Origin: Bacteroidota bacterium
Lineage (GTDB): Bacteria; Bacteroidota; Bacteroidia; Bacteroidales; UBA4417
Assembly: GCA_013376995.1 (NCBI GenBank)
Contig: JACAAZ010000008.1
Coordinates: forward strand, 386 to 64,385
Direction: 5' to 3'
DNA: 64,000 bases
A program made the translations under genes and the position numbers. How positions within the stretch are numbered: the first letter of the stretch is position 1; each line of letters starts with the position of its first letter. Positions 47,420-51,683 of this stretch are shown here, piece by piece. Under the pieces are notes generated by a model that was not told the DNA's origin, did no database searches, and saw nothing but the letters and a program-made list of their open reading frames with translations.

Positions 47420-48760
47420 TTAGTAACCGGGGTTTTGTTCCATTAATTTATTGGTCTGCATCTCACTCAGGGGAATAGGAAATAAAGTGTATTTAGCGTC
47501 TATCCCCAGGACCGTTTTTGCCCTGCCGGTTCGCACAAGGTCAATCCATCTTTGGCCTTCAAAAGCAAATTCATGTCGGCGTTCATTTTCGATAGCCAAT
47601 TTCAGATCATCTATTGTAGCAAACTCAGTATTAGCCAGGCCTGCCCGGTTACGCACCAGGTTGACATCTGCCTGTATGGCCTCGACAGCTCCCCCGGAAT
47701 ATGCCAATGCTTCGGCCCTGGTTAGAACTACATCCGACAGCCTCGAAACATAAACCCTGTCAGTGCCGCCGGAGACATCATTGTATTTAATACAGTAAGG
47801 CAGATTCTTCTCGTCATAGGCAACACTACCGGCAAGACGCAAATCACCGGTTTCAAAACTCTGGATGAACCCGCTTGTTGGTGCAACTTCATAACGGCCA
47901 AGAAGATTTCGCGTGTAATAATATTGTGCGAGCCTGTTGAAATTCTGAAGATCATACACAACTTCAAAAATGGATTCTGCAGAAACAGTACCAGCACTAA
48001 AAAGCGTCTGAAAAGCAGGTTCAAGCGAATACCCTCCTTCGTCAATCACACGGGTGGATTCCTGGATAGCAAGCTCTGCTGAAGGCTGATCTGCCTCCAT
48101 CTGAAATTTAGACAGGTAAACTTTTGCAAGCAGCGCAGAGGCAGCATATGAATTTGCCCTGCCATTCACTTTTCCTGTGGATAGTTTATTCTTTGCCTCT
48201 TCAAGATCGGCTATTACCTGGTTGAATACTTCAGAGGCTGTATTCCGTTTTGCATCTATGCTGCTTAAACCAAGGGTTGGCAAAGTCTTAATCGGAACGC
48301 CCCCAAAATGAAGAACCAGGTTATAATAAAGCAATCCCCTGATATATAGTGCTTCCCCACCAATCTGATCAGCCACCGGCTGGGTAATATCTTTAATAGA
48401 TGGTAGCGCATCAAGGACATTATTTGCCCTGTTGATCCCATCATAAGAAGCGGCCCAGAAGCCATCAACTATACTATTATCGGCCGGGACGGGCTTTTTC
48501 TCAATCTGACCATAGTCCTGGCTTGTACCGGTCCAGGTCAGGTTATCAGCTGCAAGATCGCTAACGATGACAAAGTTACGCCCATACAGTCCAACAGCCT
48601 GAAGTGAATTGTAAGTTCCAATAAGTGCATGCTCTGCACCGGCCTTAGAACTGATGGCTATATCACTTGAAATGGAAGCAGTGGGCTTTACATCCAGTAT
48701 TTTATTGCAGGATGCCAGAGTAATGACAGGGATCAGGAGGTATAAAAATATCTTTTTCAT
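47420..48760 (-). CDS. RagB/SusD family outer-membrane lipoprotein
   Basis: Start 48760, lipobox LASC; EALYIRGLLY, RLSDVVLTRAEA, ERRHEFAFEGQRWIDLVR and FPIP.SE. Confidence 0.95.
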   Translation of the reverse strand: MKKIFLYLLIPVITLASCNKILDVKPTASISSDIAISSKAGAEHALIGTYNSLQAVGLYGRNFVIVSDLAADNLTWTGTSQDYGQIEKKPVPADNSIVDGFWAASYDGINRANNVLDALPSIKDITQPVADQIGGEALYIRGLLYYNLVLHFGGVPIKTLPTLGLSSIDAKRNTASEVFNQVIADLEEAKNKLSTGKVNGRANSYAASALLAKVYLSKFQMEADQPSAELAIQESTRVIDEGGYSLEPAFQTLFSAGTVSAESIFEVVYDLQNFNRLAQYYYTRNLLGRYEVAPTSGFIQSFETGDLRLAGSVAYDEKNLPYCIKYNDVSGGTDRVYVSRLSDVVLTRAEALAYSGGAVEAIQADVNLVRNRAGLANTEFATIDDLKLAIENERRHEFAFEGQRWIDLVRTGRAKTVLGIDAKYTLFPIPLSEMQTNKLMEQNPGY

Positions 48761-48779
48761 ATAGTTTTCGGTTTTAGGA

Positions 48780-51683
48780 TCAGAAGCCAACATTCAAACC
48801 TGCCGTAATCGTGCGTGACTGCGGATAGGTAAAGAAATCGGTTCCAAGAATTACATTGTCATTGCTGTAATAGTTCACTTCGGGGTCCATACCGGTGTAA
48901 GTGGTAAATGTGAAGAGGTTCTGACCACTCAGGTAGAATTTGAGTGACTTCATATGCAGCCATTTAGTTGGTTTGGATGGCAGGCTATAGCTGAGGGTCA
49001 CATTTTTTATCCGCAGGAAGGATCCGTTTTCAATAAAGCGTGATGATTTATAGGTATCTCCAGCACGTGGCATATCAGTGATATCCCCGGGTTTCTTCCA
49101 GCGGTGGATCATTTCAGTAGTCTGGTTATCCTCACCTGTACCCGATTGCAGGTAGATCCATGTTCCGTTAAAAATATCATTCCCCACCGAGGAATAGAGG
49201 AAAACGGAAAGTTCGAAGTTAAAAAAGCTAAAGGTGTTTGTTAGACCTGCCGTAAAGTCAGGATTCGGGTCACCTGTTTTGGTCAGATCGTCAGAATTGA
49301 GTTGGCCATCATGGTTGATATCCTCATAAACCAGGTTACCGGTCGTAGGATCAACACCCAGGCATTTGTAACCATAGAAAACACCAATGGGCTGGCCTTC
49401 CACTACCCAGTTTCCACCCCTACCATAATCTGCGATTGGCTGTCCATTGTAAAGTTTGAGCACCTTGTTGCGGTTGGCAGCAAAATTCAATGAAGTTGTC
49501 CACTTGAATTTCTTATCAAAGTTTATAGTATTCAGCGTAGCCTCAAACCCCTTGTTTTCAAGATTGCCAATATTTGTAGTTATAGATGTAAAACCCGAAG
49601 AAGCCGGTATAGGCCTTGGGAGCAGGATATCATTGGTTTTGTTGTAGTAGAGATCAAGTGTCAGGTTGATACGGTCCTTAAAAGCGCCAAAATCGAAACC
49701 GAGGCCTCGCTGAATGGTGCTTTCCCATTTCAGATCCGGGTTGGGAAGTTGAATTGGAGTTATCCCAGACATTCCTCCATAATTATATCCTCCGCCATAT
49801 AAGCCGAGGCTTGAAAAATCTCCGATTTCATCGTTTCCTGTCATCCCATAGGTGGCACGTAGCTTCATGTCACTGATCCAGGAGATATTTTTAATGAAAT
49901 TTTCTTCGGAAGCTCTCCATGCTACTGATACTGAAGGGAAGTAACCATAACGGTTATTCTTGCCAAATTTGGAAGAACCATCAGCCCGGGCTGTCAGGGT
50001 CAAAATATATTTATAACGGTAGTTGTATTTGAATTGTCCGAAATAGGAGTTTATACCCCTGTCGACAGCTGAAGTAGAAGCAAGCCTGATCGTTCCTGCA
50101 GAGTTTATGTACTGCAGGTTTTCATTGGGGAAATCGATTGCCTCTATGTAGGTGTTTCGTTTGGCATACTTCTCAGTACTGTATCCGACCAGTGCTTCAA
50201 AGTAGTTTTCGTTGATCGCCTTATTATAATTAAGGATGTTATTACTTACAAGGTTGCTCACATAACTGGTACCCTCGATACCCAGCCCGTTGTACTTGGC
50301 TCCCTGGCGGGTTGTGATGGGGTCATATTCATGTTCGCGAAGCGAATAAACATCCGCACTCCACTTGGAAGTGAAAGTGAATCCGTTCAGAAACTTATAT
50401 TCCAGGTTAATATTTCCACTGTTCCGGTTATCGTAGGCTATGTTCTTTGTTTCATTGATAATTGCCACCGGATTCGCATATGGGCCGTCTTCATTGTAAG
50501 AGCCGTCCTCATTATAAACCGGGTATATTGCCGGAATTGAAAGAGCATTGGGCAATGGGCCAAATAAGGTTTGGTCGCCTTCTACCCTGCGGGTTTTTGA
50601 GTAGCTGATGCTTGCCCCACAACCTATTGTAAGGTTTTTGGTAAGTTTATGGTCAACACCCATCCTGCCCGAATACCTGTTAAAAGATGTGCTTTTAACT
50701 GTTCCATCCTGCCTGAAAGCACTTCCGGAGATATACAGCCGGGTTTTGTCGTTCCCGGTGCTAAGTGATAGTTCGTTATTGGAAGTGGGACCCCATTGAA
50801 GGATCTCTTTCATCCAGTCGGTATCAATTCCCTGGACATCTGTTCCTTTGTATTCGTTCCATTGGGCAGCATTCATCAGTTTGGGTAAACGCTCTGCAGG
50901 CAAGGTTTGCATGCCGAAGGAGGTATTGAAATTGACATTGGTTTTCTGATAATTGCCCTTTTTGGTGGTAATTTGTATTACCCCGTTGGATGCCCTAGCC
51001 CCGAAAATGGCTGTAGCCGAAGCATCCTTAAGAATAGTAAAGGATTCAATATCATCCGGGTTAAGGTCAGAAATTGCGTCGATCTCCTGGCCGCTATAGC
51101 CAATTTGACCATAACTGCCTGTGATCATAGGTACCCCATCGATAACAATCAACGGTTGATTGCTGGCAAAAATAGAACTCCCGCCCCTGAGTTTGATAGA
51201 GTTCTGCCCACCGGGCGTCCCGGAATTCTGGTTGATAACCACCCCCGCTGATTTGCCCTGTAAAACTCCATCGATGGTACGGATGGGGACGTTCTTGATT
51301 TCCTCTTCGTTTACAAGGCCCACGGAACCTGAAAGCAATTTCCTGCTGGTGGTGCTGTACCCTACAACCACCATTTCACCCAGGTTGACACTTTCATCTT
51401 CAAGTGAAACATTGATCTTCGATTGCCCGTTTACGGGGATCTCCTTTTTCTTCATCCCGATGAAGCTAAAGACCAGTGTTGTCTTAGCATCAACATCAAT
51501 TTTATAGGTTCCGTTTGCTTCTGTTGAGACACCCTTTTGTGTGTCCTTGATCAGAACGGTAACTCCGGGGATTGGCGAGTCATCAGATGCAGACGTCACT
51601 TTCCCTGTGACCTGAATAGTCTGACTCCAAACCGATCCGATAAACATGCTGAAAATCAGCAGAAAGAGGTAGCGTTTTCTCAT
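48780..51683 (-). CDS. SusC/RagA TonB-dependent transporter
   Basis: Signal peptide + Q; CarboxypepD-like NTE; VVVGY TonB box; LKDASATAIFGARASNGVIQITTKKG; PNPDLKWE; C-terminal YPQSRT..GLNVGF. Confidence 0.97.
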   Translation of the reverse strand: MRKRYLFLLIFSMFIGSVWSQTIQVTGKVTSASDDSPIPGVTVLIKDTQKGVSTEANGTYKIDVDAKTTLVFSFIGMKKKEIPVNGQSKINVSLEDESVNLGEMVVVGYSTTSRKLLSGSVGLVNEEEIKNVPIRTIDGVLQGKSAGVVINQNSGTPGGQNSIKLRGGSSIFASNQPLIVIDGVPMITGSYGQIGYSGQEIDAISDLNPDDIESFTILKDASATAIFGARASNGVIQITTKKGNYQKTNVNFNTSFGMQTLPAERLPKLMNAAQWNEYKGTDVQGIDTDWMKEILQWGPTSNNELSLSTGNDKTRLYISGSAFRQDGTVKSTSFNRYSGRMGVDHKLTKNLTIGCGASISYSKTRRVEGDQTLFGPLPNALSIPAIYPVYNEDGSYNEDGPYANPVAIINETKNIAYDNRNSGNINLEYKFLNGFTFTSKWSADVYSLREHEYDPITTRQGAKYNGLGIEGTSYVSNLVSNNILNYNKAINENYFEALVGYSTEKYAKRNTYIEAIDFPNENLQYINSAGTIRLASTSAVDRGINSYFGQFKYNYRYKYILTLTARADGSSKFGKNNRYGYFPSVSVAWRASEENFIKNISWISDMKLRATYGMTGNDEIGDFSSLGLYGGGYNYGGMSGITPIQLPNPDLKWESTIQRGLGFDFGAFKDRINLTLDLYYNKTNDILLPRPIPASSGFTSITTNIGNLENKGFEATLNTINFDKKFKWTTSLNFAANRNKVLKLYNGQPIADYGRGGNWVVEGQPIGVFYGYKCLGVDPTTGNLVYEDINHDGQLNSDDLTKTGDPNPDFTAGLTNTFSFFNFELSVFLYSSVGNDIFNGTWIYLQSGTGEDNQTTEMIHRWKKPGDITDMPRAGDTYKSSRFIENGSFLRIKNVTLSYSLPSKPTKWLHMKSLKFYLSGQNLFTFTTYTGMDPEVNYYSNDNVILGTDFFTYPQSRTITAGLNVGF

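Follow-up and report, generated by a model that had tools for sequence, protein, structure and literature searches.

The subject of this analysis is a SusC/SusD pair (a TonB-dependent outer-membrane transporter and its lipoprotein partner) that is encoded together with two cyanophycinase-like enzymes on contig JACAAZ010000008.1 (assembly GCA_013376995.1) of a Bacteroidota bacterium from a freshwater metagenome. The stretch of DNA analyzed, herein referred to as the window, covers 64,000 nucleotides of this contig. According to the list of its open reading frames (ORFs), a total of five closely packed genes are located on the minus strand between positions 46198 and 54945, in the order of an S51 cyanophycinase exported by the type IX secretion system (T9SS), a cyanophycinase with a signal peptide, SusC, SusD, and a lipoprotein with PKD and beta-propeller domains, and the array ends at an intrinsic terminator (for the positions of all features see Table 1). 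Upstream, the operon is divided by a short control region from iadA (the gene for isoaspartyl dipeptidase), which is transcribed in the opposite direction. This region contains the sequence AGCGAATTTAA, and more than 10 orthologous loci have the motif AGCGAA(A)TTAA at the corresponding position; read on the operon strand, this motif is TAATTTCG, which we take to resemble, with one mismatch, the -7 box TAnnTTTG of Bacteroidota. A scan for promoters of the sigma-70 type was uninformative, as the host is a member of Bacteroidota.

Pfam scans of the ORFs between 23.7 and 63.8 kb detected no domain of glycoside hydrolases, polysaccharide lyases, or carbohydrate esterases, no pair of extracytoplasmic function (ECF) sigma and anti-sigma factors, and no hybrid two-component system (HTCS). 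The locus is therefore not a polysaccharide utilization locus (PUL) in the strict sense, in which a carbohydrate-active enzyme (CAZyme) adjoins susCD, and none is encoded within about 20 kb. The closest regulatory gene, of the AraC type, is located at 41984-42883; since the orthologous loci inspected for it (L001-L019) do not conserve this gene, it was rejected as the regulator of the locus.

SusC was identified by the models TIGR04056 (839 bits; cut-off 368) and TIGR04057 (signature, 61 bits; cut-off 46). It is composed of a signal peptide, a CarboxypepD_reg-like N-terminal domain (CarbopepD_reg_2, 68.4 bits), the TonB-box-like sequence LGEMVVVGYS, a plug (63.9 bits), and a barrel, and the Pfam search gave no STN match. 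The motif L101-E103-V105-V106-G108-Y109 is invariant in seven homologues. Among solved structures, the SusC of 8AA4/9SJE gave the best score (456 bits), as compared with 366 bits for the levan SusC and 299 bits for RagA.

The susD gene is located directly behind susC, with a gap of 19 nt after the susC stop. Its ORF (47420-48793) encodes 457 amino acids (aa) from the first ATG, and the ATG at 48760 gives a protein of 446 aa with the N-terminal region MKKIF...LASC. Since the orthologues all begin with MKK and the lipobox LASC follows, the ATG at 48760 is almost certainly the true start; Cys18 of the lipobox is invariant among orthologues. Both SusD-like_3 (98.8 bits) and SusD_RagB (94.2 bits) score over their cut-offs. 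The AlphaFold2 model (mean predicted local distance difference test score, pLDDT, of 89.4) has the all-helical TPR-based SusD fold, and its template modeling (TM) score is 0.79-0.85 to 3OTN, 3JQ1, 6GCZ (laminarin binder), and 6Z8I (levan SusD). RagB comes at rank 49 among the fold matches, with a TM score of 0.72, and is missing from the sequence matches. In metagenomes, more than 120 clusters of SusD proteins with at least 56% identity were found. This protein is predicted to be the lid and the ligand-binding partner of SusC.

These results bear out the gene-level description in the original prediction, which had been made from the letters of the window and had pointed to a compact 967-aa SusC without STN (confirmed by ORF and Pfam) and a SusD of about 446 aa (correct, given the common MKK start) directly behind two cyanophycinases (the two S51 genes lie upstream in the same operon), with no glycoside hydrolase, ECF/anti-sigma, or HTCS gene nearby (in agreement with the Pfam scans).

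The SusD protein itself provides few clues to the ligand. The mature protein contains three Trp residues, against 6-13 in the six other SusDs of the same genome, and this low number is weakly consistent with a non-glycan ligand. Net charge and isoelectric point (pI) were discarded as indicators, the pI of 4.9 not setting the protein apart from the other SusDs of the genome. The fold was likewise uninformative, because it is matched best by ordinary members of the SusD-like group, whose ligands are mixed or unknown. R276, E291, D328, and D334 are among the residues that are kept in the cyanophycin-linked clade (see below) and not in its relatives, and they map to the strand-and-loop part of the model past residue 260; they are candidates for mutagenesis, nothing more.

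The two enzymes encoded upstream differ in their sorting signals. The 418-aa enzyme scores 164 bits with TIGR02069 (the NCBI cyanophycinase equivalog; cut-off 126.6) and, when aligned to the cyanophycinase 7UQV, keeps GGDQ, GSSAG (the GxSAG nucleophile motif), DQHF-x2-R-x-R-x2-R, and GIDE. Gln20, the residue right after its signal peptide, is invariant in 13 orthologues, and relatives of the same length are found in Bacillus, Clostridia, and Proteobacteria. In Bacteroidota, proteins that are cleaved by signal peptidase I (SPI) and have no lipobox and no T9SS domain should remain in the periplasm, and a periplasmic location is thus predicted for this cyanophycinase. The 652-aa enzyme scores 83 bits with TIGR02069, which is under the cut-off, and its match to Por_Secre_tail is weak and below the cut-offs (Pfam, 22.6 against 27; TIGR04183, 20.2 against 23). 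In the alignment with 7UQV, GGDQ, GTSAG, and DTHF-x2-R-x-R-x2-R are kept. About two in three of the closest orthologous loci encode this enzyme, which is predicted from its sorting domain to be a cell-surface or secreted depolymerase.

The genome of the window (5.05 Mb, 96.7% complete) was searched for cyanophycin synthetase, and none was found: the best match to TIGR02068 is 67 bits against the cut-off of 850, the level of the Mur-ligase-like matches in all control genomes. Genome-wide, there is no further cyanophycinase over the TIGR02069 cut-off. Because the genome lacks the synthetase, the locus should scavenge external cyanophycin. Altogether, cyanophycinases, an isoaspartyl dipeptidase, and a transporter within the cluster are combined with the absence of the synthetase from the genome, the genomic features by which a cyanophycin utilization locus, as described by Ben Hania et al. 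(see below), is recognized.

The conservation of this gene arrangement was examined from both sides of the pair. Orthologues of SusD with 46-79% identity are found in Bacteroidales and Lentimicrobiaceae-type genomes, and those of their loci that have enough flanking sequence contain cyanophycinase, SusC, SusD, and the PKD/propeller gene together with divergent iadA in all cases but L014. A genome scan seeded with the SusC alignment, and hence blind to cyanophycinases, detected an S51 gene in the flank of 21 of the 26 loci in which SusC is at least 42% identical, but in only one of the 53 loci at 39% identity or less. Among the five loci without S51, L326 and L349 are on cut contigs, the contig of L278 stops just past susD, and L283 and L286 are flanked by ample sequence on either side. 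After deduplication of the fetched loci, an S51 gene was found within 6 kb of 28 of 29 SusCs at 60% identity or more and 12 of 15 at 42-60%, as compared with 13 of 106 at 34-42% and one of 56 below 34%, the last two numbers being inflated by loci that had been fetched via their cyanophycinase. The recurrence in dozens of genomes makes the adjacency of cyanophycinase and SusCD far beyond chance. In the loci of both the SusD and the SusC scans, no orthologous locus carries CAZymes beside the pair. In L014 (Saprospiraceae UBA2365), two histidine kinases are located upstream in place of the cyanophycinase, and the metagenome-assembled genome (MAG) that carries L286 has cyanophycinases on another contig (L089).

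In a tree of 80 SusCs, all members with at least 42% identity form a single clade with support of 100, which spans Lentimicrobiaceae-type Bacteroidales, Psychroserpens, Gelidibacter, Cryomorphaceae, Saprospiraceae, and Cyclobacteriaceae. One clade of SusC/SusD/PKD-propeller loci that is reliably tied to cyanophycinase over several families across the phylum is thus delimited. Its distant members (L211, 4834-17497; similar loci in L280-L285, L287, L292, and L294, from Psychroserpens, Gelidibacter, Cryomorphaceae, and others) encode SusC and SusD, two PKD/propeller proteins, a short cyanophycinase with a signal peptide, an M20 peptidase, and a T9SS S51 protein, so that the pairing of a T9SS enzyme with a signal-peptide enzyme is found also in these loci. 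In L211 alone, SusC bears an STN domain, and an ECF sigma factor and a FecR anti-sigma factor are encoded as well, a set-up that implies, as judged from its gene content, trans-envelope signaling by cyanophycin fragments.

Outside this clade, smaller groups of cyanophycinase-linked SusCs (Flavobacterium, Parafilimonas, G312, and Gemmatimonad-labelled MAGs) branch apart, among orphan susCD pairs that lack adjacent enzyme genes, and for this reason the link to cyanophycinase would have been either made several times or often lost. In a smaller tree, union of the clade of the window with the Flavobacterium and G312 groups was not rejected by the approximately unbiased test (p 0.55). A total of 80 generic short homologues of SusD with about 30% identity were also compared; for 71 of them no cyanophycinase is encoded in the vicinity, most of these being isolated susCD pairs. 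Membership in the wider superfamily therefore says nothing on the cargo. SusC/SusD pairs were also observed on contigs labelled Gemmatimonadetes, Gemmatimonadales, or Longimicrobiaceae (L226, L264, L297, and L308), and cyanophycinase adjoins the pair in the first three; these could be real SusCD pairs outside Bacteroidota or mis-binned contigs.

Table 1. Genes and control elements of the cyanophycin locus. Positions are those of the window, and the strand is given as + or - (., no strand).
Feature	Position	Strand	Evidence and remarks
SusC-type TonB-dependent transporter, 967 aa	48780..51683	-	TIGR04056, TIGR04057, Pfam
SusD-family lipoprotein, 446 aa	47420..48760	-	lipobox LASC; SusD-like_3, SusD_RagB
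CphE-type cyanophycinase, 418 aa, SPI signal peptide, no lipobox, no T9SS domain	51708..52964	-	TIGR02069
S51 cyanophycinase-like protein, 652 aa, signal peptide and T9SS C-terminal sorting domain	52987..54945	-	TIGR02069, 7UQV alignment
Lipoprotein, 399 aa, lipobox AAGC, PKD and YWTD/NHL-like beta-propeller	46198..47397	-	PKD_4 43 bits
Intrinsic terminator	46128..46166	-	17-pair stem, then T run, 32 nt past the PKD/propeller stop; ends the five-gene operon
Divergent control region, operon/iadA	54946..55040	.	95 bp
Isoaspartyl (beta-aspartyl) dipeptidase IadA, 375 aa, no signal peptide	55041..56168	+	TIGR01975 443 bits, cut-off 331
M28 peptidase, 533 aa, signal peptide, co-transcribed with iadA	56165..57766	+	Peptidase_M28 124 bits
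T9SS-secreted protein, function unassigned, about 369 aa from M59 of the ORF	58131..59240	-	Por_Secre_tail
DcuC/YfcC-family inner-membrane carrier, 533 aa	59552..61153	+	PF03606 304 bits
M14 carboxypeptidase (508 aa) and enolase-superfamily MR_MLE protein (369 aa)	61160..63843	+	Pfam

The last gene of the operon occupies the slot that is usual for a surface substrate-binding protein. Besides PKD_4, its 399-aa product gave weak matches to Ldl_recept_b, NHL, and DUF5050. The PKD/propeller gene is located behind susD in essentially every orthologous locus, and two copies are present in loci of the Psychroserpens/Gelidibacter type. On the opposite side, iadA is divergent from the operon in nearly all close orthologous loci, and the M28 gene adjoins it in many. 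As judged from its lack of a signal peptide, IadA is predicted to catalyze the last step in the cytoplasm, the cleavage of beta-Asp-Arg into Asp and Arg.

The YfcC/DcuC carrier has homologues beside cphE (the gene for cyanophycinase) in Bacteroidota and likewise in Firmicutes and Proteobacteria, the taxa including Bacillus, Paenibacillus, Clostridia, Fusibacter, Duganella, and Microbulbifer (L066-L131, among other loci), and iadA is often a neighbor too. Owing to this linkage across phyla, the carrier is the best candidate for the transporter of beta-Asp-Arg (or of Arg and Asp) through the inner membrane. The T9SS-secreted protein encoded between the M28 and carrier genes has no Pfam domain except for the sorting tail, and homologues with 26-60% identity are found in cyanophycin loci both with SusCD (type A) and without SusD (type C). 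Its AlphaFold2 model (pLDDT 88.8) is a beta-supersandwich similar to the non-catalytic N-domains of GH94 and GH15, and it may be a secreted factor for the binding or processing of cyanophycin. The M14 and MR_MLE genes recur beside loci of types A and C, with identity of up to 88% for MR_MLE.

Cyanophycinase over the family cut-off is encoded in 90 of the 401 Bacteroidota genomes sampled (about 22%), and at least three kinds of locus were recognized in 60 sampled neighborhoods: the type of the window, a Flavobacterium SusCD type, and the type without SusD. The Flavobacterium type includes SusC, SusD (449 aa), IaaA (isoaspartyl peptidase), cyanophycinase, a YfcC carrier, an S51 protein, and arginine-catabolic enzymes. 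The SusD-less type (L136, 7258-15585; also L132-L139 and L167-L179) includes an RpiR regulator, an 819-aa TonB-dependent transporter with a CarboxypepD_reg domain, 914-aa and 405-aa proteins without a Pfam match, and a PorV-like outer-membrane protein, and is flanked by a short cyanophycinase and YfcC on one side and by a T9SS S51 protein of roughly 690 aa on the other.

The idea of such a locus has been published. The PUL-like "cyanophycin utilization locus" was described for Salinivirga cyanobacteriivorans L21-Spi-D4 (Ben Hania et al. 2017, Environ Microbiol 19:1134; cited in PMC10206079 and PMC6243061), and the prediction of clusters of this kind on genomic grounds dates from 2017 (Ben Hania et al., via Sharon et al. 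2023, PMC10206079). As far as these descriptions go, the Salinivirga and window loci are alike in the PUL-like organization, the presence of cyanophycinase genes, iadA, and a transport complex, and the scavenging of external cyanophycin (PMC10206079); of the two cyanophycinases of Salinivirga, as of those in the window, one is plain and the other carries a Por/T9SS domain (PMC6243061). The two organisms differ in origin, the one being a freshwater, MAG-type relative of Bacteroidales/Lentimicrobiaceae and the other an isolate from a hypersaline mat. None of the four genome scans recovered the Salinivirga locus, which is compared here through its published descriptions. Its transport complex is reportedly homologous to those of polysaccharide utilization loci. 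TonB-dependent uptake of cyanophycin had been proposed already in 2012 from the gene context in Citromicrobium (PMC3400609). A TonB-dependent transporter is linked to cyanophycinase in Citromicrobium and in the type-C loci of Bacteroidota as it is in the window, but those transporters lack a SusD partner, and that of L136, the 819-aa protein, is not of the SusC type. A full-text search of the literature found no experiment on SusCD-dependent binding or uptake of cyanophycin fragments.

The general logic of the locus is that of classical Sus-like PULs. Unlike these, the window locus has no CAZyme, HTCS, or ECF regulator, its enzymes are S51 serine peptidases, and the gene after susD encodes a PKD/beta-propeller protein in place of a typical surface glycan-binding protein. 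The levan system BT1762-63 (PDB 5T3R, 6Z8I) follows the same scheme of a surface binder and enzyme, a SusCD "pedal-bin", periplasmic exo-enzymes, and an inner-membrane carrier, and is related to the window pair at the level of fold (TM score of 0.85 for SusD) and sequence (the SusC score given above). RagAB of Porphyromonas gingivalis (PDB 6SLI, 5CX8) shares with the window pair the SusC/SusD type, a peptide-like cargo (presumed for the window), and the absence of adjacent CAZymes, but the cargo of RagAB is ribosomal alpha-peptides, whereas that presumed here is a branched, beta-linked Asp-Arg polyamide.

Based on all these observations, it is likely that the SusC/SusD pair serves for import through the outer membrane within a cyanophycin utilization locus, in a bacterium that does not itself produce cyanophycin. 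The cargo is most likely cyanophycin fragments, because of the synteny with cyanophycinases, the linkage within the SusC clade, and the absence of CAZyme-linked orthologues. The original prediction, which referred to the import of peptides by RagA/RagB-type pairs, had proposed beta-Asp-Arg or its short oligomers as the cargo, and as a new class of SusCD ligand. The first part stands: service to breakdown products of cyanophycin, not to a glycan, is strongly supported by the conserved synteny, and the orthologues, for which a location mostly beside CAZymes had been named as the outcome that would speak against the prediction, have cyanophycinases and IadA as neighbors. The claim of novelty goes too far with regard to the idea, in view of the publications of 2012 and 2017. 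Kinship with RagAB was also rejected, since RagA and RagB come behind other solved structures, by sequence score and by fold rank, respectively, and the analogy to RagAB holds only with respect to function.

The sorting signals, together with the analogy to Sus-like systems, lead us to propose the following sequence of events. Cyanophycin from lysed cyanobacteria or other producers would be caught on the outside of the cell, the PKD/beta-propeller lipoprotein and SusD being the probable binders, and cleaved there by the T9SS-exported S51 enzyme. The resulting beta-Asp-Arg, and probably short (beta-Asp-Arg)n, would be bound under the SusD lid and drawn through the SusC barrel with energy from TonB. 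In the periplasm, the signal-peptide cyanophycinase would trim the imported fragments to dipeptides, which the YfcC/DcuC-type carrier would take over the inner membrane for cleavage to Asp and Arg by cytoplasmic IadA.

Several points weigh against this interpretation. L014, L283, and L286 keep SusC, SusD, and the PKD/propeller gene without a cyanophycinase in the fetched flank, and about one in three of the closest loci is without the T9SS enzyme. The SusD model resembles ordinary glycan-binding SusDs and shows nothing peptide-specific. A search of sequencing runs recovered the run of the source DNA and its study mates only, and no RNA run with the locus. The M28 and M14 peptidases nearby could reflect a broader peptide diet. 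The need for SusCD is moreover not obvious, as a dipeptide of about 290 Da could pass through porins. Whether oligomers, and not dipeptides alone, cross the outer membrane is about evenly balanced: the sole argument for oligomers is the conservation of the periplasmic cyanophycinase, and against it count the assignment of compartments by sorting signals, the loci just mentioned in which the T9SS enzyme is missing, and the description of characterized cyanophycinases as exo-enzymes that free this dipeptide (PMC10206079).

The same description of the enzymes favors import of the beta-Asp-Arg dipeptide only, for high-affinity scavenging at low concentration, with both cyanophycinases working outside the cell or on vesicles. 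The 418-aa enzyme is also in the length class of the enzymes of Bacillus, Clostridia, and Proteobacteria, in which CphE is reportedly extracellular; the absence of the T9SS enzyme from one third of the close loci agrees as well. We regard this possibility as rather unlikely, because the 418-aa protein, an SPI substrate that lacks both lipobox and T9SS domain and has an invariant Gln after the cleavage site, should be periplasmic, where a cyanophycinase would have no substrate if dipeptides alone were imported, and because the pair of surface and periplasmic enzymes is kept even in distant members of the clade. A general oligopeptide importer of RagAB-like function, within a locus for broad scavenging of protein and peptide in which cyanophycin is one of several substrates, would account for the M28 and M14 peptidases and, in related loci, M20 as conserved neighbors, and peptide-importing SusCD pairs do exist, RagAB being said to be one. 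It is nevertheless very improbable, for the constant partners of the clade are S51 cyanophycinases and isoaspartyl dipeptidases and not general endopeptidases, and RagA and RagB are distant from the pair. That the pair imports a glycan or an unrelated nutrient, and lies beside cyanophycin genes by accident of position, is hardly credible: its closest solved relatives in sequence and fold are indeed glycan transporters, including the levan SusCD, and the laminarin-binding SusD, but there is no CAZyme within the distance given above, the five genes are closely packed into one operon that ends at a single terminator, and the linkage holds over many genomes and several families.

With import of cyanophycin fragments as the preferred function, a bolder version can be formulated, which we hold as possible but short of an even chance. 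In this version the SusCD clade imports oligomers of a branched, beta-linked, non-ribosomal polyamide, (beta-Asp-Arg)n, the T9SS S51 protein is endo-acting, and the PKD/propeller lipoprotein, perhaps together with the beta-supersandwich protein, represents a new kind of surface cyanophycin binder. If so, the locus would encode a complete "utilisome" for a storage polypeptide, with a ligand that is neither a glycan nor an ordinary alpha-peptide.

Cyanophycin is the nitrogen-storage polymer of cyanobacteria and forms a large pool of fixed nitrogen that is freed when blooms collapse; many heterotrophs also produce it. With the concept already published, the value of the present locus is that of a clean and testable system and not of a surprise, and cultured strains in which the cyanophycin prediction can be tested have been identified. 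These are Gelidibacter algens ACAM 536 (L281) and Psychroserpens sp. AS72 (L280) from the SusC clade of the window and, with the second SusCD type, Flavobacterium psychroterrae CCM 8827 (L193). If the cargo is proven, a biochemically distinct, non-glycan substrate would join the SusCD repertoire, the gene set would serve as a marker for cyanophycin turnover in freshwater and wastewater metagenomes, and its binding proteins and depolymerases would be available as parts for the biotechnology of cyanophycin and its dipeptides.

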